From: Marsupella aquatica
Taxonomy: Eukaryota; Plantae; Marchantiophyta
Direction of reading: 5' to 3'
Assembly (NCBI GenBank): GCA_973895155.1
Contig: OZ316892.1
Location: forward strand, 21,019,619 to 21,083,618
Length of the DNA: 64,000 bases
Shown here in pieces: positions 8,777-56,572 of this stretch; position 1 is the stretch's first letter; the number at the start of each line of letters is the position of its first letter. The notes under the pieces are model-generated. The model had not been told where the DNA came from. It did not search any database and was given only the letters and a program-made list of their open reading frames with translations. The translations under genes and the position numbers were made by a program.

Positions 8777-10981
8777 TCATGACGGCCAGTACTCCTCGTC
8801 CTCATCGTCATCCTCATCTTCAGAACTCATGTCAAGATCATCATATTGCTCGTCATGCCCTCCTTTGGATTTCGACTGGACATTGCTGCGAACAGCAGCT
8901 CGTCTAGTGGCGATGAAGGACCTTTTACGCTTGGCAGACGCCGGAAGATGAACTTTGCCAACAGAACCACCATCACAAAATCCCCCAGCTTCATCACCCC
9001 ACTCCGATTCCGAATCATCCAAGCTTCCATCATAGCACAAACTAGGAGCTGACCCTCTTATGAGCTCCCTGTGCTTCTTTGGAAGAACTGAGCCTGTGCA
9101 AGAGGACAATAATGGTCGCCCACCCTGGTACGCAACAGCCAGCGGTCCCTGAGGTGATTCCGATCCTGCTTTAGGTACCATCGCAGCTCTTTTATCACCA
9201 ATGTAGGGAATCGATCCCATGGCTGGAGCGGAAACAGATGATATCTTTGCTGGCACCAAGCGACCCAAGGAAACGTAACCCTTGTAATCTTCATTGTTGA
9301 GCATGTTCTCCTCAGTTAAAATACCCTTGACATTTGTGGCAACTTCCACTGCTGGCTGGTTGTGAGCTTCTCTCCTGACTGCATCCTCTTCCTCAAACCT
9401 AAGAACTATCTGCTCCAAGTCCTGCAGTCCCTCTCTTACAACAACCGATCGACCTGCCCCACAATTGCATTCGCGTATTTCCTTGGCATGATTGAGACAC
9501 ATGGGTGTCGCGGAACAGCGGCAATTCACAAATGCAAGATAGCACATATGTTTGCACAGGACACACATTACACTGCCATCAAAGCCAGGTGATCTGCAAA
9601 TTATCTGTGCTCCTCGACGTTGAAGAAGCCACCTGACCTGGTGTTGGAACTTCACTAAACGCACGAATGCGACTTTTACGCTGTGTTGACGTCTCCTAGC
9701 GTTATCACTGATATTTGTTGCCTCCTGTCTCCCTTTGGAGGAGACCGATGCAGAGGATGCACCAACACTAATTGCTTCCTTACAAAGTAGCTCCTCATGA
9801 GGTAGGAGAGGAATCCGCTTCAGCAGCTCATAGCGAGCACAAGCAGCAGCTCCAAATGGAAACCAGTCCCCCATGGTGAAGTTAACAGCCTCGCTACAAT
9901 TGAAACCATGACTGAATCCTGCGTGATAGGCGCGAGGAAAGGTTATGATGAATTCACCAGGCGATTGAATAGCCCGATAGCTAGGAACCCCGTGCTCAAT
10001 TAAAAGCTCGGGAGAAAACATGGTTGTCTTGCCAATTAGCAGATCGTAGGCCAGACCTTCGTGTCCAGCAGTCAAGAGCTCTTTATCATATACATAGTCC
10101 TGGACGACTTGCTCAAAATGGGGAGCTGATTGCCCAGGAACTCCATACCATGTCTTCGGAGCACCACTGTGATGATAGTTGATACTAAATAGGTAATGAT
10201 CTTCAACATGCCAAGCAAACATAGCAAATGCCATTCCTATATATAACATGGGTTCCGTGACTCCCGGGATTGCAGTTTCTAAAAGCCGCAACGTGGAATC
10301 GGCAAGATGTGAGAAGTTATTCAGGTTCCATTTGCTCATCCCTAGGATGTCAGTGGGGGATGACGAGAATGCACTCCCTTCGATGTCAGAACCATACTCA
10401 ACATTGATCTTCCCATTATTGAGTTCCTTCCAGAATTCTGCTTCCATAAACTTTGGTGGAAGACATGCTGTGCTGCCGAATCTGCGAGAATAGAACTTGT
10501 TTGCCATCTTCTCATATTCATGAAAGGTATACTGCTGTCCACTTATCAAAAACTTGTGCATATCTGAAGAATCCCAATTGGAAAGCCGCATAGGCTGTAC
10601 TCGAGGTGTGAACCTGAAACCTGATTTCTCTCTAGTAAGGACACATCCAGCAGGGACGGAAGCAACGGAAGGCGAGACAACCTTACAGATACCATACTTT
10701 GAAGCCTCAGGCGATATTTTTTGAATATAGTCTATTGGGTCCTCGAATTCCTTTCTCGTGGGATAATAAACCGGACATGCAGGAAGCTTGTCAGCCCAGC
10801 TCATATCGATGACATTGTGCACTGCCTCCACCTGTGCTTGAACATTTGATCTTTCTGCCTGCATTCGCCTTCGTTGCATTACTAGCTTCACCCTTAAGTT
10901 GTCTGCCTTTAATTGAGATTCTGGAGAAGCACCTTGTCGTAACGCCCAGTATGTCAAACCGTCTCCTCCACTTCTCGCCAT
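8777..10981 (-). CDS. JmjN-JmjC-C5HC2 zinc-finger histone lysine demethylase (plant KDM4/JHDM3 group, JMJ706/JMJ13-like); single coding exon
   Basis: Uninterrupted ORF; first ATG at 10981 (the track starts at an upstream GTG, 11020). JmjN: CPVYYPTRKEFEDPIDYIQKI..GICKVV. JmjC Fe-binding residues: WHVEDH...AYHAGF. C5HC2 finger: CVLCKHMCYLAFVNCRC...CLNH...CNC. Acidic C-terminal tail. Confidence 0.93.
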   Translation of the reverse strand: MARSGGDGLTYWALRQGASPESQLKADNLRVKLVMQRRRMQAERSNVQAQVEAVHNVIDMSWADKLPACPVYYPTRKEFEDPIDYIQKISPEASKYGICKVVSPSVASVPAGCVLTREKSGFRFTPRVQPMRLSNWDSSDMHKFLISGQQYTFHEYEKMANKFYSRRFGSTACLPPKFMEAEFWKELNNGKINVEYGSDIEGSAFSSSPTDILGMSKWNLNNFSHLADSTLRLLETAIPGVTEPMLYIGMAFAMFAWHVEDHYLFSINYHHSGAPKTWYGVPGQSAPHFEQVVQDYVYDKELLTAGHEGLAYDLLIGKTTMFSPELLIEHGVPSYRAIQSPGEFIITFPRAYHAGFSHGFNCSEAVNFTMGDWFPFGAAACARYELLKRIPLLPHEELLCKEAISVGASSASVSSKGRQEATNISDNARRRQHSVKVAFVRLVKFQHQVRWLLQRRGAQIICRSPGFDGSVMCVLCKHMCYLAFVNCRCSATPMCLNHAKEIRECNCGAGRSVVVREGLQDLEQIVLRFEEEDAVRREAHNQPAVEVATNVKGILTEENMLNNEDYKGYVSLGRLVPAKISSVSAPAMGSIPYIGDKRAAMVPKAGSESPQGPLAVAYQGGRPLLSSCTGSVLPKKHRELIRGSAPSLCYDGSLDDSESEWGDEAGGFCDGGSVGKVHLPASAKRKRSFIATRRAAVRSNVQSKSKGGHDEQYDDLDMSSEDEDDDEDEEYWPS

Positions 10982-11300
10982 TTTTCCTCCTTGAGATTCG
11001 TGTGCACCAAGTAAAGGCACGCCTCGGAGCTGAACTCCAGTCAGACCACCCCAACACCCTCTAAAGAGTTTAAATGATCATGTGATGTCTTGTCTTCGTG
11101 CCCTCCAAAACAAAATGGTCAAGATTCGACTCTTCCTTTTAACGGTAATAACATCGGATATAATTCACTGATCTGAAACTGAAAGAACAGTTTATTCGAA
11201 CCAACTACTTGCACACTAGATCATCGACATTGCAGATGATAAATGTGCTGTATTCCAACTCGATCAAACACCCAAATCATCACTTTACCAAGATGAGCCC

Positions 11301-14442: not shown

Positions 14443-14740
14443 ACCGTGGTCAAGGTCCGAGGCTCCACGCCCTTCCCGGTTGGAGGCTCTTTCCTTTACC
14501 GCAGTCACTCACTTTGACCCTGGTCAAGGTCCGGGGCTCCACGCCCTTCCCGGTTCGGCGCTCTTTCCTTCACCGCTGTCACTCACTTTGACCGTGGTCA
14601 ATGTCTGGGGCACCACGCCCTTCCCGGTTCGGTGCTGTTTCCTTTACCGCAGTCACTCTCTTTGACCGTGGTCAAGGTCGGAGCTCGGTCCTTTACCGCA
14701 GTCACTCACTTTGACCATGCTTAAGCTACGGGGCTCCAGA
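14443..14740. repeat. 74-bp tandem repeat (3 full copies plus partial copies) carrying the palindrome TTGACC-nn-GGTCAA
   Basis: ggtcaa recurs at 14448, 14522, 14596 and 14670 (period 74). A degenerate copy lies near 14945-14980. Confidence 0.85.
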
Positions 14741-16329
14741 CCATTTAGTCGTGAAAAGTAGTTAGATTCCACCTTTCCAAGTCACTTTCTACTAAAATTA
14801 GCTAGTTACTCTCAGTCCCATTATCCAGAATTTAACGGTAATGCTTAAATTTAGGAGATCTAAAAGGAAAAAATTAGTTTCAGCATCTTTTATTCACAAG
14901 AAAAACCTTAAATATTACACTCCTCCAGACCCTTCCAGTTCCGGCCCTCTTCGCAGTCACACATTTGACCCTGCTCAAACTACTTTACCTCCAGGGGTAA
15001 TCTCTTATCCCGAGACCGACAGTAACAAGCGTCAGATGCTGTCAAAACATTATTATAAACTCTAGATATATTATTAGTTCAGTTTATTATTGTGACCAGA
15101 TAGTTTCGGTCGGTCATGATCTGGTATAATATAAGTATAGTATTTTCGTTGGGATTCTCGGAAAGCAAAAGGTACTGGTACACGGTAACTTTTACTGTCT
15201 GGTACACCGTTAATAACAGAAACCGAAACTACCAATATGGTATTTGGACAGCTTCATTGATGATCCTTGCTCTGGGTGCAGGGTATCGAACTGCCGTGGA
15301 GCACAGTACGACGTCCACGGTAAGCGTCCACCAAGCCCGCTCCAGAAAGTTTAATTATTTGTTTATTTGCCTTTTCATATTTACTTCCCTCGACAACTGC
15401 ATTTATGCTTTATACTAGAGTGTTCGGCTGGAAGCTAGAAGAGAACAGGATCTCCTGTTTTGTAAGAATCCAACTTTTCATATGATCTTCCAGAAATTCA
15501 TTTTTTTACTAGGATGGCAAGAATTCGTCTCCTTTAAATAAGAATTCAAATTTTCATAGGATCTTTCAGATACTCATTTTGACTAGAATGGCATCGATAA
15601 TACTCATAGTCGTACATAACGTAAGAGCGTGTTGCGATCCAGTGTTCTCTCTCTACCGGTGTGTATGGACTGTAGTTTCTTTGACTTTCTATTTGTCCAT
15701 GTTGTCCACTGTTTCATGTACGAGTTGGTGCCTTGGTATGTGGTTATTGTGTTGTTGTTTTCGTCTTCAATTGAGTTTTTGTGGCCCTCTTGATTTGGCC
15801 CAATACTACTGCTCGTATTTTTTTAAACTCATCCAAGTGTGTGGTCCAACTACACAGCCCTCTCACTCTGGCCTGGTTTTCCTTTTGTCGCAGAAGACAA
15901 AAATGTAAATAACTCATAAGTTGCTTGGTCGATTTGAACTCACTGAACCCATTGTAGAGCCAAAGATACCCTTCTCCACACCTCTACCAAAAGAAGCCAG
16001 TGACGACCAAAACAGGGGGATGAGATTGTCTCTTTATACACCAAACTGCACAGGTTGGAAACTGCCAGAAAAGGGTCAGCCCAAAGATGACTAGCAAGGC
16101 CCACACAAGGAGACGGAGCCAAAACCCAACGAGATAGCAAAAGTAACAAGGTATTGCATTTTGTGAGCATTAGCAGACCAAAAAGAAACACTTTGATTGC
16201 TTAATTAGAAAAAACAATATTCCTTTACCCAATATCTACAGTAGCACAAAGGTATACGCAAGTTGCAACCATCACGATCATCTGCACCTTTGCATGATAT
16301 TTCCTTAATTGTCACTCAATTAGTTCAGG

Positions 16330-16507
16330 TGTCGTGACATATAGTATCGTAGCCATAGTGTATCGAAAACATACAAGTCACCAGCAATGCATATGTGCAA
16401 GCTGCTAGCAACCAACATGCATGTAGAAAAAGTCCAATCACATTCACAAGTGCCAAGAAAAAGCAACTGAGGTGGTATGTACGTAGTGGAGGTGTAAACC
16501 TCTATAT
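16330..16507 (-). repeat. Split repeat A (178 bp), terminal copy
   Basis: Direct repeat of 16870-17047 (offset 540); about 5 mismatches, all transitions. Confidence 0.92.
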
Positions 16508-16867
16508 ATAAAAGGCGTAAGAGAAACAATTGTACTGAAATCGAATCAAAAACCGGTAGGATGCCAAGATCGGCCGGGGGCATCTAACGAATCACTGTGT
16601 GAATCCCGTGTACGGAACCGACGAGCACTGTCTGAGCTCTGTCAACAGCGATTCAAGAAGAACTGAAAAACCAACAAAGAGAAACACACCCTAAGTAGAT
16701 CAAGTCAAGGCGTCACACTAACAAGCACGTTTTGCTTCAAGACCGGCCTAGACTTGCTACAAGAACATGACACTAACTCAAGTAGTACACTAGCCCTAAC
16801 TACATACCTAGCGGGCATGCGAGGGACATGCCGATGTGCACAAGCGGCACTGTCCCTCGGCATGACA
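16508..16867 (-). repeat. Split repeat B (360 bp), internal copy
   Basis: Direct repeat of 25937-26296 with about 9 mismatches; ends in CATGACA. Confidence 0.93.
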
Positions 16868-16869
16868 GC

Positions 16870-17047
16870 TGTCGTGATATATAGTATCGTAGCCATAGTG
16901 TATCAAAAACATACAAGTCACCAACAATGCATATGTGCAAGCTGCTAGCAACCAACATGCATATAGAAAAAGTCCAATCACATTCACAAGTGCCAAGAAA
17001 AAGCAACTGAGGTGGTATGTACGTAGTGGAGGTGTAAACCTTTATAT
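16870..17047 (-). repeat. Split repeat A' (178 bp), internal copy abutting the PPT
   Basis: Starts TGTCGTGA two bases (gc) after the CATGACA end of B; matches 16330-16507. Confidence 0.92.
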
Positions 17048-17054
17048 CCCCCCC
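17048..17054 (-). other. Polypurine tract (plus-strand primer) candidate
   Basis: G7 run on the minus strand ~30 bp after the pol stop codon and immediately before A'. Confidence 0.7.
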
Positions 17055-17086
17055 AGACCACAGCCAAAAGGAGGGCTGAAGAAAAG

Positions 17087-17230
17087 TCAGGTAGCACAGG
17101 AAGGGCAAAACCATAACCCTTCTGGCACCTGGGTAAGTTCAGGCCGAAGGCAGAAATGATGGTACCCTCCATTGCAATTATCACACAGCAGCATCTGGTT
17201 AGCATCGTCAATTTGCAAACACACTTTGCA
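17087..17230 (-). CDS. C-terminal PHD finger (C4HC3) of the integrase
   Basis: CKVC-x8-LCDNC-x4-HHFC-x11-WFCPSC followed shortly by the stop codon. Confidence 0.9.
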   Translation of the reverse strand, partial: CKVCLQIDDANQMLLCDNCNGGYHHFCLRPELTQVPEGLWFCPSCAT

Positions 17231-17499
17231 AGGGTAGTCCACAGGTGGAATCCAGGTAGAAGTCACAATGGTGGGATCCAAGTTAGGCAGATGACAAGGA
17301 GCACAATTCTTGGCATTGTCAGCAATTGTGCGCCCATCTGCCCCTTGTAACTCTAGCACTCCAGACGGTCGAATAGCTTTAACCCTGAGAATAGTACAAC
17401 TGGTAGAGGTGTCCAGGGTGTCGTTAGCTTGCCGCTGCAAGTACACAAAATCTCCCACATCAAACTTCCTGACCTTGGGCTTAAAAGTGCCCCCTCGTG

Positions 17500-18420
17500 T
17501 GTGTGTGCATAACACAGTGTGTCCCTGTGTTGTGCAATGGCCAAATTCTCCATGGCCATGGGCATAACCCTCCTAAATAGGGCAGCCCTCTCAGAGATCA
17601 CATCAGACCAAGTCACAGCTGAATCCAAGTCCACCACCTGAAGCATGTGAGCAGCAATAGCAGAAGGTGGAACTGGGTGACGACCAAACAACAAGAAGTA
17701 GGGAGAAAAGTTAGACAGTGATGCATGTCTGGACATCCTATACCCCATGGCAATGTAGGGTAAGGCCAGGTCCCAATCCTCCTTGTTTTTGGTGAGGCAG
17801 ATCTTCCGGAGGCCCTTCTTGCATGTCTGAACCATGCGCTCTGCCAAGCCATCTGCCTGTGGGTGATCTCGTGATGTCCGGCGATGATCAATGAGGGCCT
17901 GATCAAGCAGCTCCTGGAACTCTCCTCTGAATTCTGATCCCTGGTCAGTGAGACATTCTGCACAAGCTCCAAAGCGGTTGAGAACTTGTTGAAGGAATGC
18001 CTGGCTGGTGCTACGGGAGGTCTTATCTGGCAATATCACAAGTTCTATCCACTTGGAGAAATGCTCTATCATGATCATGATGTAGAGATTACCCCGAGAT
18101 GTGAGGGGTAATTCTCCAGCCAAATCACATGACCAACGATAAAACATGCCCTGAATAGGGAGTGGATGAAGTGTGGGTTGCCGAGATATGAAAGAAGTCC
18201 TTACCCTATCACACTGTTCACACCGGGCAATAACATCTTGAACCTGGCCATGCATGCCTCTCCAATGATAATGAGGGACCAAGAGGCTGTAAGTCCTCTT
18301 AACGCCAAAATGACCAAGCTCATAATGTACCTTACAGATAAGGCCAACCCTCTCATGAATGGGTGGAACCACCACTTCCCTGTCTGGCAAGCAGTGCACG
18401 AGATGATCTCCCTTCCACAA
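17500..18420 (-). CDS. Integrase (H2C2 zinc finger + DDE core) portion of pol
   Basis: HYELGH...CEQC; catalytic DLAG / TDQGSEF / AERMVQT; SPYFLLFGRHP. Confidence 0.93.
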
Positions 18421-18438
18421 GTAACGCTTGGACCTTTG

Positions 18439-20145
18439 CTAAATTCGGTCTCTCTGGGTTGCAATAACATGTACGGGGTACTCCCCATGCTGCAAAAATC
18501 TCAGAGTGTCATTGTCCTCCCATATGTCCACCACAGGTTGGTCAACAACGTAGCATGGCAGCAAAGCAAGATAGGTAGATGCATGAAATGTGGGCAGGAT
18601 GGAAACCTGGTCAAAATCCTGCCATGCATCTAAGGAATCATCAGAGGCAATCAAAGGGCTACGGGACATAGTGTCAGCATTTTGATGTGTCACACCAGGC
18701 CTATGAATTACCTCAAAATCATACTCCTGGAATATGAGCGCCCAACGAGCAAGCTTGCCAGTAAGGTTGTCGTTGGTCATCAACCACTTCAAGGGTTGGT
18801 GGTCGATGTAGAGAACAAACCTGGTCCCATAGAGGTAGGGCCTGTAATGTATGACAACCCACACAACAGCAAGGCATTCACCCTCATACGAAGAATAATG
18901 ACTCTCTACCTGATTGTTGCTCCTGGATGCATAGGCAATGACGTACTCTTTACCTTCCTCATCATGCTGGCCTAGAATGGCACCAATCCCAAGGGCACTC
19001 CAATCTGTGTGTAGCACAAAGACCTTGCTGAAATCAGGTCTTCTCAACACCGGGTATTCTGAGAGCTTCTCCTTCAAAGTGGCAAATGTTGCCTCAGCAT
19101 CTGTACTCCATGTCCAAGTCACATTCTTTTTCAACAAAGCATACAATGGGTGTGCAATGGTGCTGAAATCTTTGATGTAAATCCGGTAGTAATTGCACAA
19201 CCCAATAAAACTCCTCAAAGTGTGAACATCGGTAGGAGTGGGCATTTCCAAGATGGATACCACCTTGGCCCAGTGAGCCATGGTTCCATTTGGAAGAATG
19301 CAGTGCCCAAGGTATACTACTGATCTGACAACAAATTCACACTTCTTGGGGTGTATCTTTAGGTTCACCTTCTTAAGCCTCATGAATAGCTCCTCGAGGT
19401 CAAGTAGATGCTGGTCAAATCCTTTGTTGTGGACCAACACATCATCAATGTAGCATTTCAGAAACTCAGCACCTTGAAGAACCTGGTCCATGACTCTTTG
19501 AAAGAATATGGGCGCATTCTTCAAGCCAAATGGCATCACCAACCACTCCCATAGTTGGTTACTACCATGGAAAGTTGTTTTCTTGCGGTCCTTTGCAAGC
19601 AACAAAATCTGGTTAAAGCCTTGCCTTAGATCCACATGAGTGAAGATGTCTGAGTCTCCAATGCTGTCAAATAGCTCCTCTGGCTGTGGCATGGGGTACC
19701 TATCCTGGGGTGTGACCAGGTTCAATGGCCTGTAGTCCCCACACATGCGCTTCTCTGTCCACAATCCACTGGAATCCTTCTTTGCTGGCATCACTGTAGC
19801 TGCTGCAAAATCTGATGTAGATGGCTGAATAAGACCAGCTTCATATAACTCTTGGCACCTCTCATCCACCAGCTGCCACTCATGCTTACTCAAACGATGT
19901 CTCCGCCTGAAGATAGGTGTTTCCTCAGCCAACTCAATGGAGAACTGCATGGTCTTGCACTTACCCAAGTCCTTCATAGAGAAAGCAAACACGTTCTCAT
20001 GCTTGAGGAGCAAATTCAGCAGCTGGTCCTTCTGTCTTTTACTCAGGTGGTTGCCCATGATGAACATGTAGTTGGCAACACTAGGAATAGGACCTGATGT
20101 ACTCGTGCTTGAAGAGCCAGAAGTGCTAGCCTCCCCACTGTCCAA
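18439..20145 (-). CDS. Reverse transcriptase + RNase H portion of pol
   Basis: RT: CGDYRPLN, DLRQGFNQI, MPFGLKNAP, YIDD, KKCEF, YLGH. RNase H: TDWS, SSYEGECLA, DHQPL, NADTMSR. Confidence 0.95.
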   Translation of the reverse strand: MDSGEASTSGSSSTSTSGPIPSVANYMFIMGNHLSKRQKDQLLNLLLKHENVFAFSMKDLGKCKTMQFSIELAEETPIFRRRHRLSKHEWQLVDERCQELYEAGLIQPSTSDFAAATVMPAKKDSSGLWTEKRMCGDYRPLNLVTPQDRYPMPQPEELFDSIGDSDIFTHVDLRQGFNQILLLAKDRKKTTFHGSNQLWEWLVMPFGLKNAPIFFQRVMDQVLQGAEFLKCYIDDVLVHNKGFDQHLLDLEELFMRLKKVNLKIHPKKCEFVVRSVVYLGHCILPNGTMAHWAKVVSILEMPTPTDVHTLRSFIGLCNYYRIYIKDFSTIAHPLYALLKKNVTWTWSTDAEATFATLKEKLSEYPVLRRPDFSKVFVLHTDWSALGIGAILGQHDEEGKEYVIAYASRSNNQVESHYSSYEGECLAVVWVVIHYRPYLYGTRFVLYIDHQPLKWLMTNDNLTGKLARWALIFQEYDFEVIHRPGVTHQNADTMSRSPLIASDDSLDAWQDFDQVSILPTFHASTYLALLPCYVVDQPVVDIWEDNDTLRFLQHGEYPVHVIATQRDRI

Positions 20146-20399
20146 GTTGCTAGCATGCTACTGATAAGGTGATGAGGCCTCTCCAAGGCCTGTTGTATCT
20201 GTTGCTCTGGTCTGATCCACACCATGAAACTCAGAAATAATATCAGCCACGTTACAAGGGACCTCCTCCCCCCCAACACTTGGACTGAAGCGGTGAGTGT
20301 TGAATAGAGGTAAGTGCACTTGGTCTGGATGCCATGGAGCAGCACCATGGAGTGGTAGGGCTGGAACTCCTGATGCTGGATGAATGTACATCTAAAAAA

Positions 20400-21355
20400 G
20401 GATGCAGGTGACCAGAAGCCAAGTGAGAGCATTAAGATCCATTACCCTGCCAAGTAAAGCATTCCTGGCCAACTTGGTGATTTTGGTGTGGCATGTAGTA
20501 CCGGGTTGGAAGCCCATAGCCCGTTCTCTCTCCTCAGGAATAGGTTCATCCCATGTACCGGTAGAATGTCGGTAAACCAGGCCAGGACCATCACCCTGAA
20601 AAGCATGTGCACCTGGAAAGGACACAAATGTAGGCCAAGCAGCACGGGGCTGTCCAATGGTATTGGCTGGATACCAAGGTGCTGGCTCTTGCCGTGTAGC
20701 TAGTTGGCAAGAACTGTCAGGATCCAAAATCTGGTCCACTGTGAGGTTAGTGTCCCTGGATGTGTGGTGAAGAGCTAACTCCAACAAGGAAGGTGGTGCA
20801 AGGTTAGTCCAAAAGTTACGAAGACAATGTGCATAAGAACCACAGTGCACTGCATCAATGAGAAGGGGTGGTCCCAAGTAGTGCTGGACCACACTAAAAT
20901 CCTCTTTGACCTGTGGTCGCTGGTCAAACTGAGATGGAGTATTCTCAATGATATAACCAACAGCAGGATAATGGGATTGAGCCCAGGTGAGAATCTGAAC
21001 CAATGTTGTGAAAAGGCCAGAACGAGAATCATGCAGTCCAGCACCAGGACCAGCAGCTAAAAACCCTTTGGCATTCCCAACCAGCTATGATCAAATCAAG
21101 GGAGCCAAGAAGGGTTAAGTGCCGGTGCTGGACAAGCTGGATATCTGGAGGAAAGAAAGAAAATGTAGACTTCCATGCACTGTGTGGAAACTGCTGAGGA
21201 AATCGCTCTGAAAATTCCAGCAGACGGGATTCAGCCACTTGCCTTGCACCTGGATCAATATCCACATAGATGTACTACTTCACCACCATGCCAGATTGTA
21301 GGAGAGCTTCCAGACCTGTAGAAATGCCACCAAAAAGCTCAAGCAATGTAAGGCC
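20400..21355 (-). CDS. C5 cytosine DNA methyltransferase domain, DNMT3-like (one stop, one frameshift)
   Basis: Motifs in canonical order: I LLELFGGI; II YVDID; IV LDLIIAGWECQ(GF); VI GYIIENT; VIII YAHCLRNFWTNL; IX ERERAMGF; X RNALLG. Confidence 0.88.
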
Positions 21356-21689
21356 ATCCGGAGCAGGAGTCCATGTAACTGGTGCGCTCAAGATTGGGGC
21401 TATTGGCTGTCCATTGTGCTGCCCAAGGTCTTCAAACTTGCGCAATGCAGCCACCAAAGGTCCATGGGCTGCTTGGAGCCGTTGTACCACCTCTGGTTGA
21501 TGATCCATGTTGCTGGAAAGTGTTGCTATACGTGCAGCAGCATGTGCAGCAGCCACCTCATCGTCATCCTCCTCAATCCAATCTTGCAATGGGTGGTTGA
21601 CATAGGTAGCTGTGTGCACTGCTTTCAACACACAGTGGTGAGCCATAGGTGTATGGGCACCATGCAAATCAAGTGGAATGTAGCCCAAG

Positions 21690-22060
21690 TGTGAGCCATC
21701 AGTATGCCAATCAACTCTGTAGTATGCATGCTCATGCCAGTTGTCAATGGTAAAACCTGGTGGGAACAAAGCCTCCTGGCCAATGAGCACATCATACGTA
21801 GTGGCATTGGTAACCAAACATCTGACTGGGAAATGTAGTTCCTGATCTATACCGCCATTAAAAGTGAGAGTGAGTAAAGTAGAACTCTCACCCAGCACAT
21901 CCTCCACAGTGCCACTAGCAGTCCGAATGTGCCACTTGGATTGCTGTAAATGATCAGTCAACAGTCCCATCTTCTTGGCAAACCGAATGCCCAATATCAC
22001 TGGTTGAGCACCTGTGTCTAGCATGACCACCTGAGGAGTGTGACCCTCCAACTTGACCAC
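21690..22060 (-). CDS. Retropepsin-like aspartic protease domain (boundaries approximate)
   Basis: VMLDTGAQPV active site and downstream YDVLIG motif. Confidence 0.85.
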
Positions 22061-23158
22061 TGAATTCCTGTTGTCAACAATGGCAATGGTGGTGGAAACT
22101 GAAGTCCTGTCACTAGGCACCACTCTTGGCAAATGATGAGGTACCTTGTGAAGGGAGTTAGTGTCCACGGTCTTTCCACTCAACAACATAGCCAGGAAAG
22201 ATGGAGCAGCATGACCAGAATCAAGTGTAGCTCTGGTCACACAATCAGTAGCAATCGGTACTGGGGCAGCCAAACCAGTGCAAACATGTAAAGGAGAAGA
22301 AGAAGGTCCAGTATGTACATGAGATTGGACCTCCAAAACCGGTGTCACATGGGCTGATGAAGAATGTAGTGAACCCTCTAGCGCCCTGAGGACAGCTCTA
22401 GCATCTAGCTGTAAATCATGGCAACTGAAAAGTGGAGTTGTAAGAATCTTTTGTGCCATACCGGAGGTGAAATGCTCAAGCAGCTCAGGAGAAACAACTC
22501 CCTGTGAAATGTCAGCAGCACCTGGTGGTGGAATGGATGTAGTTGCAGCTCCCTCCCCCCTCGCCAACAAGGTGCGCTCTTCAGCAAGTGTGAGGGGCTG
22601 AAAAGATTGGGGCAAGACAGCCCGAGCTTCCTTGGCTCTAGTCATAGGACCAGCAGCAAGACCATCAGCCTGTACAATGCGGCGCATGGGAGCAATACGG
22701 GAGGCAGCACTGGCCTGCTGGTAAGAAAAATAGGAAGGGCATAATGAATCTGAAAGTTCTGCTGTAAGGCCAGACTATGGAGCAGAGGATAGCACACACT
22801 CACCCATATGAGCATCAAATGGTAAGCCATAGAAAGAGCAGGGTAGAGGTGCTGAACTGTCAGTGGTGCCTGGGCCAGGGATGGGTTGCACATGACCAGC
22901 CGGTTGAGAAGGACCAGCAAAGGCAGTTGACTTGCCTTTGATGTTGGCAAGTTGGGCACGTAGGGACTCAACCTCATTAGTTAGAGATTGGAGTTGAGTT
23001 GCCTGTGCGTTGTGAGCCTCCTTCTGAGCTGGTTGCTTCTGATGCTGCTTGGGCGGTTTGTTGGCACTGGATGCTTTGCCACTGGAAGGAGGAGCAGTTG
23101 ATGCAGTAGGAGCCCTCCTAGCTAGTGGGGGAGTGGAAGCAAGAGCAGGAGGAGGGGC

Positions 23159-24364
23159 CTACTGTCGTAGCTGCTTCCTCTCTAGGAATTTGGCAAAAGA
23201 AACTGCCTCCAAGTAACCCACTTTCCCGCAAAAATCACAAGACAGGTCCTCAACAACAATATCACACTCATTAGCCTTGTGATTGGGGTTACCACAGTAG
23301 TTGCAAGATGGCAGCATGAAAGCAGCATGTGCTGGCTTGGTCTTGGAACCATACTGTGGCACACGAGAAGGAGTGGCCAGTGTAGGGGCAGCAGCCTGGT
23401 ACCTGGATCGCGGTGGACGTGCAATACTGGCCTCATAATGTGCATGGGCCAACTCAAGTTTCTCAGCAGTGTCATAGACATTGAGCAATGTGTAGCTGTC
23501 TCCAAACTTTGAGAATACTTGCTGCAACACTTGCGAATGGAGAGCTGGTGTGCCCTCCAATGCACGAAGATAGCGATGAGCAGCCTCCAAGTCAGTGATG
23601 CTCTGGGTATCCTTGTTCAACTTGAGAAGCCGGCGATACATCATCTTCAAGGTTTCATCGCGCTGCCTCACAAAGGTGGCCAACTGCATGATTTTCTCAG
23701 CACTCTTGATTGAGAATTCCAATTCAAGAACCTGGAAAAACTCAGCCACTGGATCAGCAAAGGCAGGAGAATCAATGGTGGGAGAAATGCCTGATGTAGC
23801 CTCTGCCAAGACAGTGGGAGTAACTGGCGCAGTGGTAGGAACTGGAGTAGGAGGGGAAGTGGCAGGAGCAGCAGCATGGGCTGCAATGGCATTCTGTAAG
23901 GCCAATTGTGAGGCTGCCGCAATTGCACTGGCATAGGTAGGGTTAGGCAACTGTGTGACAGCAAGCAGCCATTGAGAATGTTTCTCATACACATCCAAAG
24001 CCTCATGGTGCACATACCTGGCTAGCTGCTTAAATGCAAAAGCATTTATGAAATTGCTGCCATACTTAAACTCCAATTCGTATACGATAGTGTAGAAAGT
24101 GGATTTGAACTCACGCAAAGAAACAGTGCCTGGCCACCCGCTGAAGCGCTCAATGCGGCCAGATGAGTGGCTGGCATCCATGCTGTATGTCGGTGAAGCT
24201 GGAACAACCACTGATGCAGAAGGGGTAAATGGCAATGAAGTGATAGCAGGCTTCGGAGTAGTGGTAAAGCGACCGCCAAATTGAGCAGGATTGCGTGGTG
24301 TGGGTGCTGCTGCTGTCTGTGGCCGTCTTTGAAATTGCCAAGACTCCAATGAAATTGGTACCAA
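23159..24364 (-). CDS. Gag portion with CCHC zinc knuckle(s)
   Basis: CNYCGNPNHKANEC fits CX2CX4HX4C; degenerate second knuckle CDFCGKVGY. Position is 5' of the protease. Confidence 0.8.
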   Translation of the reverse strand: MVPISLESWQFQRRPQTAAAPTPRNPAQFGGRFTTTPKPAITSLPFTPSASVVVPASPTYSMDASHSSGRIERFSGWPGTVSLREFKSTFYTIVYELEFKYGSNFINAFAFKQLARYVHHEALDVYEKHSQWLLAVTQLPNPTYASAIAAASQLALQNAIAAHAAAPATSPPTPVPTTAPVTPTVLAEATSGISPTIDSPAFADPVAEFFQVLELEFSIKSAEKIMQLATFVRQRDETLKMMYRRLLKLNKDTQSITDLEAAHRYLRALEGTPALHSQVLQQVFSKFGDSYTLLNVYDTAEKLELAHAHYEASIARPPRSRYQAAAPTLATPSRVPQYGSKTKPAHAAFMLPSCNYCGNPNHKANECDIVVEDLSCDFCGKVGYLEAVSFAKFLERKQLRQ

Positions 24365-25766
24365 TGGTCGTGGATCACTCCGTAAATGGTACCTGGGTGT
24401 TGGTGGCGATGAGTTGCTACCTCCTGGCTTGTCGGCTGAGATGCTGCATGCTCACCCGGGGTGCCAATGGGAAAGAAATTGACAAGAAAAAGGAGTGGCA
24501 GCCCCAAGGCTAGGAAATGAAACCCACGAAGGAGGCAAACGGTGCAAGGCAGCAAGGCAGCAATGTGTCGAATGTGTAAACGCACAGAAAAGCCCCTTAA
24601 AAACTCCGGAAAGGCCTACTGCTGGCGGCAATAAAGAAATCCGGGAAAAGAAAATAGAAGTGGCCCCCCTTTAAGTGTATACATTGGGCCCCTCTGTGGA
24701 CCCAAAAACTGGCAGGAAAAGGGAAACCAAGAGGCGCGCGTCAGCGGGAAAAGAAAACCGGGCCAAGTGGGACACAGTATCGGGGCACGGTGCTCTATGG
24801 AGGTCGTCGATGGCAAGGTAAGAGCAAACGGAAAGAAACGGGCCCTACAAAATGTGAAAGGGGCCCCCTAAAGTGTATACACATCAGCCCGATGTGGTCC
24901 TGAGAGATGGAAACAGGTCGATCGTCGCGCGGCAAAAAAGCGAGACAAGCCAAAAAAGGCGAAAAGAAAACGGGAAGAGTGAGGCGAAGAAAAGGAAATG
25001 AGCCCTGCATAGGGCTTCGCACCCCCTCCCCCCCTCCTTATGAGCTCCCGAAGCCTCCTTGGGGCTTCGTGCCCTGGCAGGCCTAAGTACTCCCGTGTGA
25101 GGGAGTTCGAATTGAACTCCCCTCTCCTCCTTTAATGCAGCTTGGGCCTTGTGCCCTCTCCTGGCACTCTCGCTCCCCCTCCCGGCCTCCTTTTATTGCA
25201 GCATAGGGCCTCGTGCCCACTCCTTGCACTCCTGCTCCCCTCCTCTTGGCTTTAATGCTGCTGAAGGGCTTCGTGCCCTGCAAGAGGACTCCCGAAAGGA
25301 GTCTATGTTTACTCCCCCCCTCTTCAATGCTGACAGCGGGCTCCGTGCCCTGTAGAAGGACTCCCGAAGGGGGTCGACGTTAACTCCCCCTCCTCGCGCT
25401 TAATTAAATGCTGGCAACGGGCGCGGGAGGAAGAAAAACGCCGAAGGGAGGGTGTGCGGCCCTATGCGCGACCCAGGGGCAATGATGAGCCCCGCATGTG
25501 TATACACAGGCAGGACTGGGAGGCACCTCACGACGGTAGCTGCGAGGGGAGGCAAAATGAAACAACGGCCGGTGAGAGAAAAGAAAGAACGGGACCCCAA
25601 AGGGTCGTGAAAACATAAGGCGAAGGGAAGGTGGTCGCACTGTGACCGGAAAACACCGAATATGGCCCGAAAAAGGTCGTGGCAGTCAGCAACCGGCAGC
25701 CATAGTCGAAAGCAGCAAAGGGTCCCCAGATGCAACCGGAAAGCAAAAGTCGGGCTCCAACGGGAG

Positions 25767-25803
25767 TGTTATGTGTATACTTATGTTAAGTATACACATA
25801 ACA
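25767..25803. other. Perfect 17-bp-arm hairpin in the retroelement 5' leader
   Basis: tgttatgtgtatactta-tgt-taagtatacacataaca. Confidence 0.9.
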
Positions 25804-25923
25804 TCATATTGAACCCATAATTTCAACTCGTCCCTCCGATGTCCGTCGAATAAATTGCAATGGCTTCACCAGAAATTGTCATAATTGTCACGAACAATCT
25901 TCTTCCCCTCACCACTATCTCAG

Positions 25924-25938
25924 CAGTTCTTCTTGAAT
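25924..25938 (-). other. Self-priming primer-binding site candidate
   Basis: cagttcttcttgaat abuts B' and is the exact reverse complement of 26080-26094 (attcaagaagaactg) inside B'. No TGG-initiated tRNA-type PBS is present at this position. Confidence 0.7.
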
Positions 25939-26296
25939 AAAAGGCGTAAGAGTAACAATTGTACTGAAATCGAATCGAAAACCGGCAGAATGCCAAGATC
26001 GGCCGGGAGCATCTAACGAATCACTGTGTGAATCCCGTGTACGGAACCAACGAGCACTGTCTGAGCTCTGTCAACAGCGATTCAAGAAGAACTGAAAAAC
26101 CAACAAAGAGAAACACACCCTAAGTAGATCAAGTCAAGGCGTCACACTAACAAGCACATTTTGCTTCAAGACTGGCCCAGACTTGCTACAAGAACATGAC
26201 ACTAACTCAAGTAGTACACTAGCCCTAACTACATACCTAGCGGGCATGCGAGGGACATGCCGATGTGCACAAGCGGCACTGTCCCTCGGCATGACA
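25937..26296 (-). repeat. Split repeat B' (360 bp), 5'-terminal copy
   Basis: Matches 16508-16867; begins TGTCATGCC on the minus strand; followed on the + strand by the TSD CAGG. Confidence 0.93.
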
Positions 26297-29200
26297 CAGG
26301 GAGTAACTTTGTGGTCCGAATGTGGTTTACCATTGGGATAGGATTTTGGTCTGTCTTGGGCCTTGGGTTTATAGTATTTGAGCTTGTGTATATCTTGGCA
26401 TGACTCCTTTTATGCTTAAAAGTATTTTATATAGAATGGATTTCTGTTTGAATTATTTTCTTTGGGATCCTGTCTCCCAGTATGGCACCCTTTAATATTC
26501 TTTATAATCTTATATATTTTCGATGGAAGTACAGTGTGGCACCCTTTATTCTTTACAATCTTTCATATATTCGATGGATTCCGGAGTCAAACTTTGACTA
26601 CTTGGTAGCTAGAGATCTCCTTCGTATGCTGTAGTTACGAACTAGGCTATCTCCACCTAAACATCTCCTCGGTACGGGTCACCTTTTCCAATCCAAAACA
26701 AATATAAAAAGGTACAAAATCACCATCCTACTATCCTGATAGGATCCCAAGATAGAAAAATTTTGTCCTCTAGTGTTCCCCACTCAAACAGATTCTCTGT
26801 TTGGATGAATCTAGTTTATACTCATATGTGATATGTAGTGTAAGGTAAGATTGATTGGGGCAGGTAAGGTAAGGTGAGCTAAGCTAGGATTGTAATGCTG
26901 CAAGTGTTCCTGCTCCAATGAGATTTTATTTGGTGAGTTCTTATCATAGGATTAAAAATGAGAAGATCCTGTGACGGACTTGTGTGCAAAGGTTGAGGCG
27001 AATGCAATGTGGGATAGGATGAAAATGATGAACATGCTGAATATGCATTGGCCATAAGTTGATGGACACAGGCAATTTTGTGGTGTGCATAATTATGAAA
27101 CCTAGTTTTGTTGACAAAATTGCAAATTCCTTATGTATTTTCCTGGGTACAGGGGCTAAAACCATCTCTGGAAAATATGAACCTAAGTGTAGATGCAACC
27201 ATGAAGATAAGGAGGTGCTAGAATTATTTGCATTTCATATTCTTCTCCTTGAGATGGCTCGTAGTAGCTTGCAAATAAGTGTTAGTCAATAACCAAACAA
27301 GACAAAGTAACTTGAGTAGTCTACCCAACAAGGGAATGTAGAGACAAAGATGAGAGGAGCTTGTACTAGTAACAGTTTTGGGTAGTGCTTGAGGCATTCA
27401 TACGCTTGGCCTTTGTTCACAGTCAATGACTGCATAGGACAAAGAAAAGGGACGAAGCTGAGGGCAAATCGAATTATGAAGGCAATATTTGATTGTGAGT
27501 CTGGATGCCAACCAAAAGAAATACATGGACAAAGAGTGAGCTTGTGATCTATGATGCATCACAAGTCATACGGGGAATGGCTTTGCTTATGGGTTGTTGT
27601 CCTCATTATTGTTCAAGGAAGTGACGTATTGGTCCTGGGCCCAATAAACTGATAAACTCGATCCGGTAGCTCCAGGGGTAATCGGGAATAATCTTTATAA
27701 TATTTTGCATATCCGAAATGATTGTTATAATATTTTGCATATACTGAGCAAGAATTTAGATCAATCTTCTTGGTCTCGTGACCAAATAGATCTTTGGTCA
27801 TGGAACGGAATTTAGGGTACATACATCTATACATGGCAGTTGCCGGATTTGCCACATCATAGCGCATTATTCCTTATCGGTAAAAGTAGGTGCCAGCAAA
27901 ACGCAAAGCTTTCCTTATTTGTAGTAGATAAGTTTGGATTTGTAGCTCGTCGGCTCTACAGAAAATGAAGATGCTCTGACTTTGTACGCCAACCGGGCCG
28001 GGTCAGACCTGTAACTACAGTCAATAAACATTTCGACCATGATTGTCCAGACTGTGACCAGGGTTATCTGCTTGTCGGTGTTTATATGGCAACACGACAG
28101 AGGAGAGATCCTCGGCTTCGCTGGTCAAACGCAAGGAGGTTCCATTTCCAAATGGGGCCCACCATGAGTGGGTGCACGTCATCGTTTACCCGCAGGAGAT
28201 CCTGATCGACGTTCAGTTGTCCCCCTCAGGGGCGCCAGATCTACTGGGGCCGTTCGATTTCAAGCCCTAGCGTACAAGCGACAGAGGATAATGTAAGGTG
28301 AGGTGAGGTGAGTCTACCAGCCACCTGACCGTCACTCCTTGATCGTGGTTCCTGGCTGAACTTACGGCGTACTCTGTCTAGTACCGGTACAGTGATTGAA
28401 TGCTTTTGAATGGAATAGTATTAAATACTAATATCACGAATTGGAACAACATGTATATGTAAATAATTTTTTAGACGAGAGTGCTTTCTACTGTACCTGT
28501 CACCATCCAGATAAGCAACAGGACGTATTGTGTGTGCCAATTGTCATTTAGCTAAAAAATCTGTGGACAAATATAGAGTATCTAAAGCTCTTTATTGCAC
28601 ATGCTTACACTATTTAGGCAATGATCGACATACTTACACTATTTGGGCAATGATCGAACCGGTAACAAGTTTTGATTATGCTATACTATGAATACACATT
28701 TCAGATTTTGTATCACTAGCAATATTACCAGTTCGTTCCTTGAAGGTAAAGAGAAATGAAGAAAAATAATCTTGCATAATAAAACTTAGATGCTAAAAGT
28801 TACTCTTTGCCCATACTTTTTTTGTCCACCTTCATGTCAGTTTTGTCTTTATTTGAAATCAATATCATTTTTGCCCATCCTCATTTAAAGTTTTTTATTG
28901 AGACTCATGATTACTTTTGTTTGTATTGAGGGATATTAATATGCATTTTTATTTCAATGTGCCATAACAAAGTGTATGATTTGTAATATTTAGATTTTGA
29001 ATCAAGCTTGGGACCCTTTAAAAAAAATTATTGTCCTAGAGTATATTGTTCGCATCCCACTTAATTTAATCCTTGCCTTCCTAGAAGTCTACTTTCCTAC
29101 TAGTTTTAGATTCAATAGTTTGAATCTAATCTCTTTCGGTCACTTTCACTAGAAAGAACCTCGATCTGTCGTAGTGAGGGAGAGGAATAATTATGGCCAA

Positions 29201-46913: not shown

Positions 46914-53354
<6,441 letters not shown>

Positions 53355-54157: not shown

Positions 54158-55312
54158 TCACCATGGTCGTGCTCGTGTCCGTTTCCCCATTGTGTATGCA
54201 GGTCCCTTTGAGCCTTGCCAGGGTGAATATTGACCAGGCCCTGGGTTGCCATATCGGTTGTCGATTTCATGTCGGCCGGCAATTGTGTAAGCAACTGTTT
54301 TGTCGTTAGGGAGATTGTAGGATCCTGGGCCTGGTCCCTTCTCTCCAATAAGACCATGCACCTTGGCAGCCATCGTATACGAAGGCGCGCCAGATCGGCT
54401 CCTAGGATCATATGCTCCTGGGCCTGGTACCATTTCTCTACTTCTGTGTTTCACTCTTCCAGCTATGGTGAAAGCAGGACTTCTAAATTCTTCTGAATTG
54501 TATGCTCCAGGTCCAGGATTATTATCTCGACCACTATTACCTAGTCTTCCTGCAATCGAAAAAGCAGGACCACCGTCCCTTGAGTACGGAGAGTATTCTC
54601 CAGGTCCAGGGCTCCTGATTGCCCCACTTTCAGCTGCTCTTCTGGCCAATGTATAAGCAGGTTCCTTACGATGAAGAATGCGTGCGTCTCCCGAGTATGC
54701 TCCGGGCCCTGGCGTGTCTTCAGTTATCGTTCTAATGTTCCGCTTAGTGAGGGTGTACGCAGGGGCAGATGGTTGCATTTTAGGGTTATAGGTACCTGGT
54801 CCTGGTGATTTGTGTTGTAGACCATCTGAATATCGCCGAGCCATTGAGAATGCTGGTGATTGCGGTGAGGATCCTGCATCATAAGCTCCTGGTCCTGGGG
54901 TCTTTGCCCCTAAAGGATCTGGTTTCTTTCCTCCCATAGTGTAGGAGGGACCATCAGTTTTGGATCTGAAACTGTATGTACCTGGACCTGGACTTGGGTG
55001 ACGTTTACTCTCATGGTATCGGGTTGCCATCGAGTATGCAGGTGGTGATTGCTGCACATTAGGTGTGTAAGCCCCTGGACCAGGTCCAGGTAGTCCTCTA
55101 GGCTCACCAAATCGACCTGGGATTGTATATGCAGGACCGTGAGATCCAACTTGTGGAGAGTAAGTCCCCGGTCCAGGTTGATCCCCTTGTCCATCTGATC
55201 TGAATCGAAGAGCCATGGAGTAAGCAGGTGGTGATGTATTGACGACATTCTTGGATTTTGCGACGTCATATGTTCCTGGGCCTGGGGTTGGGTCGCCATA
55301 ATAAATGTCCAT
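54158..55312 (-). CDS. SHIPPO/ODF3-like sperm-tail PG-rich repeat protein (384 aa)
   Basis: About 12 repeats of PGPG(T/A)Y....P(A/S)(Y/F)(T/S)(M/I) with ~30-aa period. Confidence 0.85.
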   Translation of the reverse strand: MDIYYGDPTPGPGTYDVAKSKNVVNTSPPAYSMALRFRSDGQGDQPGPGTYSPQVGSHGPAYTIPGRFGEPRGLPGPGPGAYTPNVQQSPPAYSMATRYHESKRHPSPGPGTYSFRSKTDGPSYTMGGKKPDPLGAKTPGPGAYDAGSSPQSPAFSMARRYSDGLQHKSPGPGTYNPKMQPSAPAYTLTKRNIRTITEDTPGPGAYSGDARILHRKEPAYTLARRAAESGAIRSPGPGEYSPYSRDGGPAFSIAGRLGNSGRDNNPGPGAYNSEEFRSPAFTIAGRVKHRSREMVPGPGAYDPRSRSGAPSYTMAAKVHGLIGEKGPGPGSYNLPNDKTVAYTIAGRHEIDNRYGNPGPGQYSPWQGSKGPAYTMGKRTRARPW

Positions 55313-55950
55313 TATCGTTCTGTCTCAAGAACACATGACATTTCAAATTGTCAGGTTTTTCTTTGGTGGCGGCATGTGCAACTCAGCAGAGGGGTGGAGT
55401 GATGGAAGCGCTATTCGTGAGTCAGATGAGTTTGTAAGAGGTAAATTTAAGGTCAATGTTGCAGTCTTTGGTGGTCACAATCTGGACAGGGTTCCCTGTC
55501 CTAGGAGCAGGACAGACTACACTAAGAACTGTAGAATGGGGCTAGAATAAATTAAAACCAACGGGAATGTGGAGGATAGTGAGGCAAGCTTAGTCCATCT
55601 ACGAAGTAATTTTCTAATTTTCTAGTGCTTTGTTTATAATTAATCCTTCGGTCGTTTGATCACAGTCAAGATACATTGTGCCTATCTAAATTACACATCC
55701 AGCAGTTTCTGCTCCTCCAGGGGGAAGAACCTCCCTCCAAACCTCGGGGAACTAATAAATCGTTTCTTACGCATCTTCCCATCATTTCTATTTTGAGGCA
55801 AGTGAAGAGATGGAAGCAAACCTATTAATGATGCCGTCCGAGGAATCCATGATTGTTTCAAAGATTACAAACGAGTGTAATTGTCTATCTATTATAGATT
55901 CCTAGCTGTTTGTGGGTTCTTTCGTGACAATCACCTCCCAAGCAAGCAAT

Positions 55951-56572
55951 TCATTTGCTCTTTCTTCGTTCTTTCAGTTGCGGTCTGACCCTAGTACGCT
56001 TTCCCATTGTATATGCTGGACCTCTTGATCCCTCTGAAGGACTGTAAGTACCCGGTCCTGGCCCCGAAACTGGATCACTTGTTGAATGTCGACCAGCAAT
56101 TGTGAAAGCAGGTGCTGCTGTTCGTTTTGGAGTATTGTAAGTTCCAGGTCCTGGCCCTCTCTAGCCCTGAGCTAGATACCCTCCCTGCCATAGTGTATGA
56201 GGGACCATCTGGCGTGGATCTTGAGCTATATGACCCAGGACCTGGGCTGGTTTCACGACGATCTGAGCTATGCCGACCTGAGATTGAGAAAGCAGGTGAA
56301 GTCGATTGCTCAGGAAGTGTATACGCCCCCGGGCCAGGCCCATCTTGTCCGTGGGGCTGAGTTTGTCGACCATTAAATGTGTATGCAGGATTGCTTGGTC
56401 CAGAGTTAATATTGTAGGTCCCAGGACCAGGTTGATCGGCAGGATGTCCTGAGCTGTAGCGACCAGCTATGGTATATGCAGGTGCTGTGGCAAACGGGCT
56501 TGCTGCCCGTGAAGATCTCTGCACATTGTAAGTTCCTGGACCTGGTGTCTCTTCAGCAAAGTAGGGATCCAT
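55951..56572 (-). pseudogene. Second, shorter SHIPPO/ODF3-like paralogue with a frameshift at ~56160
   Basis: Starts MDPYFAEETPGPGTY. After an AG run the PGPG repeats continue in another frame to GPAYTMGKRTRVRP...TGA (55951), matching the neighbour's C-terminus GPAYTMGKRTRARP. Confidence 0.8.

Follow-up and report, generated by a model that had tools for sequence, protein, structure and literature searches.

What does a PHD finger do at the end of the integrase of a retrotransposon that also carries a DNA methyltransferase? The question is raised by a 64,000-nt stretch of the Marsupella aquatica genome (contig OZ316892.1, positions 21,019,619 to 21,083,618; hereafter the window, numbered from its first letter), in which a Ty3/gypsy-type retrotransposon, now decayed, occupies the minus strand at 16330-26296; its direct repeats are split as in DIRS elements, and it carries a DNMT3-like domain. 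The answer favoured here, with a probability of roughly 0.6, is that a canonical C4HC3 PHD finger ends the integrase of this DNMT3-carrying Ty3/gypsy-type element, is predicted to read histone H3 unmethylated at lysine 4 (H3K4me0) and would thereby likely tether integration.

The finger is encoded at the end of the minus-strand frame 17572-17087, which is open throughout its 161 residues and has the C-terminal end ...YPCKVCLQIDDANQMLLCDNCNGGYHHFCLRPELTQVPEGLWFCPSCAT*. It occupies residues 115-159 (17096..17230), where the Pfam model PF00628 is matched over its full length (positions 1-47 of 47) with E = 5.4e-12 and 46 bits, against a cut-off of 24 bits. The full set of eight zinc ligands is present (C115, C118, C130, C133, H138, C141, C156 and C159), together with the Trp located two residues ahead of Cys-6, and the stop codon (17089-17087) lies two codons past the last Cys. 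In the AlphaFold2 model, generated with the family alignment as input, the predicted local distance difference test score (pLDDT) of the finger is 72-84 over residues 110-161. The cross-braced two-zinc fold is supported by Foldseek superposition on the fingers of BHC80, ATXR5, BAZ2A and UHRF1, with a root-mean-square deviation (rmsd) of 1.0-1.8 Å.

The predicted module layout is an SH3-like β-barrel, a floppy linker and then the PHD. The barrel is the C-terminal domain of the integrase (17279..17470, minus strand; residues 35-98 of the frame), with strands in residues 42-92 and a pLDDT of 63-86 over the block, and the linker residues 99-108 fall below 50. Given this predicted order, the finger sits exactly at the position of the chromodomain in chromoviruses. 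No chromodomain is found among the Pfam matches of P0001 or P0002, nor in the long relatives. A previous reading of the window from its letters alone (the sequence-only reading) had placed an intact C4HC3 finger at the end of pol, standing after the integrase in place of a chromodomain; the coordinates and the pattern prove correct, the finger does follow the C-terminal domain of the integrase, and the PHD profile scan that it proposed gave the match described above.

The frame of the finger is offset by 2 nt from that of the integrase core (stop-to-stop 18438-17353, minus strand, containing the Pfam rve and Integrase_H2C2 matches). In P0007 (929 aa, 81% identical) the reverse transcriptase (RT), RNase H, integrase (IN) and PHD lie in a single frame, and tblastn of this protein places the frame switch in the window at about 17488-17518. 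A (CA)n run on the element strand, equivalent to the plus-strand GT run 17497-17507, has two extra bases here and splits the integrase core from the C-terminal domain and PHD. The element strand reads ...TAT GCA CAC ACA CAC GAG GGG..., and relatives have one CA fewer. In a comparison with related metagenome loci (the best 80 of 466 relatives), 78 span the run; 71 of these are 2 nt shorter than the window, three are equal in length, three are 3 nt shorter and one is 5 nt shorter. In contigs of four public sequencing runs with near relatives, two bases are missing at 17497 in 4, 2, 1 and 1 contigs. The 2-bp slip that the sequence-only reading had located near 17500 is thus borne out, and in 71 of 78 loci the PHD is in frame at the run, rather than being out of frame or missing.

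A programmed −1 frameshift at the CA run was considered and rejected. An unshifted product would lack the integrase C-terminal domain, which is encoded downstream of the shift, and a large majority of the wider family is simply in frame; programmed frameshifting is therefore unlikely. No slippery heptamer of the form X XXY YYZ was seen when the frame overlap was read by eye.

The integrase C-terminal domain and the finger recur together in a large family. Searched with phmmer in 1.84 billion representatives, the 161-residue frame has 6417 hits with E ≤ 1e-3, 867 at 1e-10 and 90 at 1e-30, and nearly all of the top 150 matches span residues ~19-160 (the integrase C-terminal domain plus the finger) unbroken. 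Among 30 longer homologues of this last frame, PF00628 is carried by 27, rve and PHD are listed in one protein for 21, and the C4HC3 pattern is perfect in 22, the rest having Cys-to-Tyr or Cys-to-Arg changes or being cut short. The '...APCHLP..D' sequence that ends the integrase C-terminal domain is conserved in 30 of 30 aligned relatives, and all eight zinc ligands are invariant in an alignment of 19 sequences with 35-77% identity. The median ratio of nonsynonymous to synonymous substitution (dN/dS; pairwise Nei-Gojobori, 69 ungapped copies, 2257 pairs) is 0.23 for the finger and 0.25 for the integrase C-terminal domain, in pairs that are not independent and with the dS between window and locus saturated. 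The finger has been conserved under purifying selection, like the integrase C-terminal domain. The named hosts are bryophytes (Calypogeia fissa and Sphagnum magellanicum) and green algae (Hariotina reticulata, Scenedesmus sp., Haematococcus lacustris, Monoraphidium neglectum, Chlamydomonas eustigma and Pseudoscourfieldia marina).

What might such a finger bind? Its best sequence matches in the PDB are KDM5/Lid PHD1, CHD4, WSTF, ATXR5, KDM5D, BAZ2B, KMT2C/D, KDM5A/B PHD1 and BAZ2A, followed by UHRF1/2, ORC1b, PHF21A, the DPF and MOZ fingers and AIRE; TAF3 (E about 1e-5) is near the bottom of the 60 matches listed. KDM5/Lid, CHD4, WSTF and ATXR5 score alike in this search, so none is singled out as the donor gene. 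When the model is compared using Foldseek, the ATXR5-H3 complex matches with 53% identity and an rmsd of 1.6 Å, BHC80 with an rmsd of 1.0 Å and BAZ2A with an unmodified H3K4 peptide with 47% identity; UHRF1, DPF2/3, CHD4/5 and ORC1b with unmodified H3 are also matched, and no H3K4me3 reader was recognized among the best 50 matches. Readers of H3K4me3 such as BPTF, ING2 and TAF3 carry a Trp two residues before the zinc-bound His. This position is Gly136 in the window; it is Gly in 212 of 230 family fingers and Trp in none.

ATXR5 provides the closest comparison of contacts. In that finger Asp41 and Asp44 contact H3 R2, and the amine of A1 binds to backbone carbonyls of Pro60 and Gly62; the pocket for K4, narrow enough to select the unmethylated form, is built from main-chain carbonyls of residues Val23, Gly31 and Leu37 (PMC5499861). 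By alignment, Asp41 corresponds to D131, Asp44 to N134, Pro60 to P150 and Gly62 to G152, and the pocket residues Val23, Gly31 and Leu37 to Y113, I121 and M127 respectively. The loop lengths match, including an equal C2-C3 loop. Asp or Glu directly follows Cys-3 in 222 of 230 family fingers and P-x-G is present in 185 of 230; D131 and Tyr113 (just before Cys-1) are each retained in 77 of 77 metagenome loci. The comparison of H3K4me0- and H3K4me3-binding residues suggested by the sequence-only reading therefore gives a signature of the K4me0 type, with the ATXR5 contacts mostly kept. Judged by the solved fingers closest to it and by its residues at the contacts with H3, the finger is predicted with moderate confidence to be a reader of H3K4me0.

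The second enzyme of the element is a DNMT3-like cytosine-5 methyltransferase domain (20404..21364, minus strand), located between the protease and RT. It was found by tblastn of P0033, P0021 and P0028, to whose DNMT the segment 21364-20404 aligns at 37-45% identity, and a hidden Markov model (HMM) of the family DNMT matches P0006 with E = 1.1e-62. When the DNMT part of P0033 is searched against the PDB with phmmer, 31 of 31 matches are DNMT3A/3B/3C or plant DRM (best E 4.4e-4), and the DNMT3-type AHR.R.FW.NL motif is covered by matches of P0033 to PDB chains. Conservation across the family extends to motifs I, IV (with the catalytic Cys), VI and VIII. The DNMT3-like domain noted by the sequence-only reading is thereby confirmed.

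Finger and methyltransferase travel together. Pfam PF00145 under-detects the family DNMT, finding it in 8 of 22 representatives longer than 1400 aa, whereas the HMM constructed from four family members detects it in 21 of 22. In 111 proteins of at least 1400 aa the order is RT-DNMT-IN-PHD in 95, DNMT-IN-PHD in four, DNMT-RT-IN-PHD in one, IN-IN-PHD in one, DNMT-RT-IN in two, RT-DNMT-IN in two and IN-RT-DNMT-IN in one; the remainder are two RT-IN outgroups, two host PHD proteins and one with DNMT only. The methyltransferase is present in 100 of the 101 polyproteins of this length that have both integrase and PHD, a set that includes the four HMM seed proteins and 17 retrieved by a DNMT query, the remaining proteins having been retrieved by the finger frame alone. 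Finger and DNMT3-like domain have been co-inherited across a large family of the green lineage. In 95 of the 111 long relatives the methyltransferase follows RNase H and precedes the integrase; it lies between protease and RT in the window, P0048 (1471 aa, in the same 90% cluster as P0007, with DNMT-RT-RNaseH-IN-PHD in one open reading frame (ORF)), P0227, P0247 and P0249. With two positions in the polyprotein, the domain has either moved within pol or been captured twice.

The ADD domain of DNMT3A, 3B and 3L, which is a reader of H3K4me0, is likewise coupled to a methyltransferase of the DNMT3 type. It consists of a GATA-like finger and an atypical PHD, placed directly N-terminal to the methyltransferase. 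By contrast, the window element has a single canonical PHD at its far C-terminus behind the integrase, with the DNMT at 21364-20404. No ADD domain is matched at E ≤ 0.01, PF00628 and PF23004 (a model of the NSD-variant PHD) being the sole matches. Finger and methyltransferase are separated by RT, RNase H and integrase, a distance of >1000 residues. The ADD-like pairing put forward by the sequence-only reading thus stands as to co-occurrence and fails as to ADD-likeness; since the PHD is canonical and so distant from the DNMT, 'pairing' is a functional analogy at most.

In the mechanism proposed here, the intasome would dock by means of the finger on nucleosomes whose H3 tails are unmethylated at K4, as suggested by the residues of the finger and by analogy with chromodomains at the same place on the integrase. 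Such docking would keep insertions off active promoters marked by H3K4me3, and the methyltransferase of the element would possibly be tethered to the same chromatin. The finger would then do with a PHD what chromoviruses are proposed to do with a chromodomain. Because it is so tightly linked with the DNMT, it may have a second role in placing or licensing the writer, as might be likened to ADD in DNMT3A and the PHD in ATXR5. The two roles are mutually compatible and not exclusive.

A bolder form of this proposal, which is tentative, makes the K4me0-type PHD and the DNMT3-like writer an obligate co-inherited pair throughout the green lineage. It would be a mobile counterpart of ADD-DNMT3, with the element docking on nucleosomes unmethylated at K4 and methylating its own new copy or landing site, a form of stealth by self-silencing. 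If true, the pair would greatly exceed in age and spread the one charophyte case published so far.

Of the explanations that depart from targeting, the one that survives best, though unlikely, is that the finger chiefly serves the DNMT, placing or licensing the enzyme on H3K4-unmethylated nucleosomes so that new copies or their surroundings become methylated. The co-inheritance in 100 of 101 polyproteins favours it, as does the order RT-DNMT-IN-PHD in 95, which makes DNMT, integrase and PHD contiguous. There is also a precedent for a PHD gating a writer in ATXR5 (PMC5499861), and self-methylation of retrotranscribed DNA has been proposed (PMC5890265). However, whatever the position of the DNMT, a short linker always joins the finger to the C-terminal domain of the integrase. 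In elements of the window type the methyltransferase is upstream of RT and remote from the finger, which is moreover a canonical PHD and not an ADD.

It is improbable that the finger has a partner other than a histone tail, such as nucleic acid, a protein of the host or some other segment of the polyprotein, or that it is only a structural zinc module. A conserved tail of at least 150 aa beyond the finger in 137 of 231 family proteins is in keeping with a linker within a larger assembly, but bryophyte-type elements, including that of the window, end 2-10 residues after the finger, which there works as a terminal module, and the residues that hold A1 and R2 in ATXR5 are conserved family-wide. 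Very improbable is the reading of H3K4me3/me2 and direction of insertion to active promoters, as proposed for PHD-bearing animal integrases: many PHD fingers do read H3K4me3, TAF3 is among the PDB matches and the conserved Tyr113 could supply one aromatic wall, but Trp is absent from the cage position throughout the family, the best 50 Foldseek and best PDB sequence matches read unmodified H3, and the loop lengths and contact residues match ATXR5 with its narrow pocket for unmethylated K4.

Several points weigh against H3K4me0 reading and tethered integration. The K4me0 assignment derives from similarity and from the Trp rule for H3K4me3 readers; the second R2-contacting Asp of ATXR5 (Asp44) is Asn134 in the window, and PHD fingers of the same sequence class also read other marks (H3K14 acylation by DPF/MOZ and H3R2 by UHRF1, according to PDB entry titles). 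All eight ligands are kept in just 38 of 77 metagenome copies, of which 21 have no stop in the finger, and to this are added the dependence among the dN/dS pairs and the composition of the co-occurrence set given above. No Klebsormidium-named protein was found in homologue searches limited by length and by word. The copy in the window is unable to make the integrase-PHD fusion. In three related runs its frameshifted length at 17497 accounts for roughly one half to two thirds of contig depth, and with most of the depth having this length, the frameshifted form is not unique to the window copy. A frameshifted sublineage may have multiplied, or the CA run may slip recurrently.

The copy of the element in the window is dead, with two frameshifts, five in-frame TAG codons and CpG decay. 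The sequence-only reading had the coordinates, pattern and slip of the PHD right, and did not mention the death of the copy as a whole. The second frameshift is near 21060, right after the catalytic 'GWECQ' motif of the methyltransferase (tblastn and three-frame translation). All five in-frame stops are TAG (at 23159, 22775, 21275, 20158 and 18439); that at 21277-21275 interrupts the DNMT3-like domain, and that at 18439..18441 (minus strand) lies between RNase H and integrase. At 18441 the window has A where every covering contig of the four runs has G (37, 15, 7 and 2 contigs), so this stop is private to the window copy among the contigs compared. The observed/expected ratio of CpG is 0.39 in the element versus 0.53 in the rest of the window, and that of TG is 1.56 versus 1.16. 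In run X1 there are 38 places where the window has A/T and the contigs G/C, and 19 where the reverse holds. The loss of CpG, excess of TG and G-to-A/C-to-T differences form the pattern expected from deamination of methylated cytosine.

The remaining parts of the element are as follows, all on the minus strand. Starting at the 5′ end of the element, the repeat B2 (25937..26296) precedes a gag-like ORF (23162..24451), whose translation has a CCHC knuckle C-x2-C-x4-H-x4-C near its end and for which no family was matched in the Pfam scan. The aspartic protease follows at 21767..22057 (Pfam gag-asp_proteas, E 7.4e-07, P0004 residues 240-336), then the DNMT, then RT and RNase H at 18721..19758 (RVT_1 with E 3.2e-27 and RT_RNaseH with E 9e-36 on P0003). 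The zinc-binding (H2C2) and catalytic core (rve) domains of the integrase are at 17860..18363 (PF17921 with E 3.1e-13 and PF00665 with E 2.6e-13 on P0002). Protease, RT, RNase H and integrase are thus all recognized by Pfam. Beyond the finger is the 3′ repeat block (16330..17047), comprising A1 (16330-16507), B1 (16508-16867), 2 nt and A2 (16870-17047). A1 and A2 are 96.7% identical over 182 nt, and B1, which pairs with B2, is 97.5% identical to it over 360 nt; in the orientation of the element the split direct repeats are arranged B2-internal-A2-B1-A1.

The order RT-RNaseH-IN, the DDE integrase and the ends of the element are those of the Ty3/gypsy type. The termini are TG...CA (TG at 16330 and CA at 26296), and CAGG flanks both ends (16326-16329 and 26297-26300) as a possible 4-bp target-site duplication; termini and flanks are consistent with the action of a DDE integrase, in this one instance. 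The B1-A2 junction reads CA-GC-TG, resembling joined element ends. Many contigs of other copies diverge before 16870, a TG end equivalent to the terminus of the element.

Some family members have further domains. In P0163, modelled over residues 160-500, a confident small β-barrel (199-241) is followed by an α/β domain at about 280-480, with weak Foldseek matches (E 3e-3 to 1e-2) to N6AMT1/HemK2, KsgA, METTL5 and M.TaqI, and an SPPF/SPWF motif is present in some members. Were finger and methyltransferase an obligate pair, many algal members would extend it, after the finger, by a barrel resembling Tudor and a domain resembling amino-methyltransferases. That the tail of P0021 holds a methyltransferase of the DAM type was considered and rejected on sequence; there is no Pfam match at E ≤ 10 and the PDB gave chance antibody matches only, and a fold comparison with another relative yielded no more than weak methyltransferase matches. 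Some algal members (P0021, P0051, P0201, P0283 and P0297) have a G-patch domain (PF01585) located after the DNMT and before the integrase, or in the reverse order of these two where it applies.

About 5 kb from the element and on the same strand, the host ORF 8780-11077 (minus strand) encodes JmjN, JmjC and C5HC2 domains (a histone demethylase of the KDM5/JMJ type). It is unrelated to the PHD of the element despite the similarity of the finger to KDM5 PHD1, and the finger was rejected as an exon of this gene because it is contiguous in one frame with the integrase C-terminal domain in the window and in every relative. Further host gene pieces at 49656-50222, 54161-55324, 56078-56674 and 59730-61130 encode a UCH hydrolase, SHIPPO sperm-tail PG-rich repeats and an F-box/KIB1-4 β-propeller. 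From these neighbours, the element copy lies in a gene-bearing region of a land plant with genes of flagellate sperm. An 89-nt unit is repeated in tandem at 14443-14679, its three copies being spaced 74 nt apart and 89-90% alike, within a 357-aa ORF that has no Pfam match.

The window element matches a published kind. KnitGypsy-Dnmt3 of Klebsormidium nitens is a Gypsy element with a DNMT3 domain (de Mendoza 2018, PMC5890265); as described there, it shares with the present element a DNMT3-related, intronless methyltransferase within the pol ORF, a Gypsy domain set with a DIRS-like repeat layout (legend to Fig. 4c, peer-review file) and a captured domain under purifying selection. The likeness is drawn from the published description. 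The host of the window element is a land plant, its nearest named homologues being from bryophytes. According to the paper, the domain was acquired in the lineage of K. nitens, whereas the present family spans bryophytes and chlorophytes. This suggests that the capture of DNMT3 predates the Klebsormidium lineage or extends more widely than it. The term 'PHD' has no occurrence in the text and three supplements of PMC5890265, figures aside. A 2026 preprint (bioRxiv 10.64898/2026.05.21.726589) refers to the 'Gypsy-DNMT3' of streptophytes as known. The EpiLTRs that it describes are likewise long terminal repeat retrotransposons pairing DNA methyltransferase domains with a chromatin reader, but in these the reader is a chromodomain and the enzymes are an adenine methyltransferase of the DAM type and one related to DNMT4; the letters 'PHD' turn up in the preprint only as part of 'PhD fellowship'.

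Chromoviruses such as MAGGY (Gao et al. 2008, cited in PMC6673714 and bioRxiv 10.1101/2021.11.30.470311) similarly place a reader of histone marks behind the integrase C-terminal domain, with a proposed role in tethering integration to chromatin state. They differ in having a chromodomain rather than a PHD, and in a ligand of H3K9me rather than the unmethylated H3K4 predicted here. PHD fingers in retrotransposons are called common in passages of PMC6673714, PMC8557442, PMC9940879 and bioRxiv 10.1101/2021.11.30.470311. As accessory domains of Gypsy pol they occur in the Chlamydomonas elements Gypsy-7a_cRei (PMC9940879) and REM1 (cited in PMC8557442); unlike in the present family, no DNMT is reported in the portions of these sources consulted, and the legend for Gypsy-7a_cRei (Fig. 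6 of PMC9940879) puts the PHD before INT and not behind it. The ATXR5 finger (PDB 5VAB) has the same zinc-ligand spacing as that of the window, the Asp after Cys-3 and the P-x-G for R2 and A1 of H3, and likewise couples reader to writer. It sits, however, on a host SET-domain histone methyltransferase.

With Gypsy-DNMT3 (PMC5890265) and PHD-bearing retrotransposons already published, the novelty claimed by the sequence-only reading was overrated. The family names were found in the full-text literature only in PMC5890265 and 10.64898/2026.05.21.726589, and no description of the PHD-DNMT pairing was found in literature on PHD, integrase, Gypsy, DNMT3 and bryophytes. What was not found in print is the near-obligate linkage of PHD and DNMT, the K4me0-type signature and the two positions of the DNMT.

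Retrotransposons that carry a DNMT raise the question of how mobile elements use the silencing chemistry of their hosts. The window itself contributes a dead copy only. In the family to which it belongs, the DNMT almost never travels without a histone reader borne by the integrase, which looks to be of the unmethylated-H3K4 class, and the pair is found from chlorophytes to bryophytes. This offers a concrete and testable model for coupled site choice and methylation.

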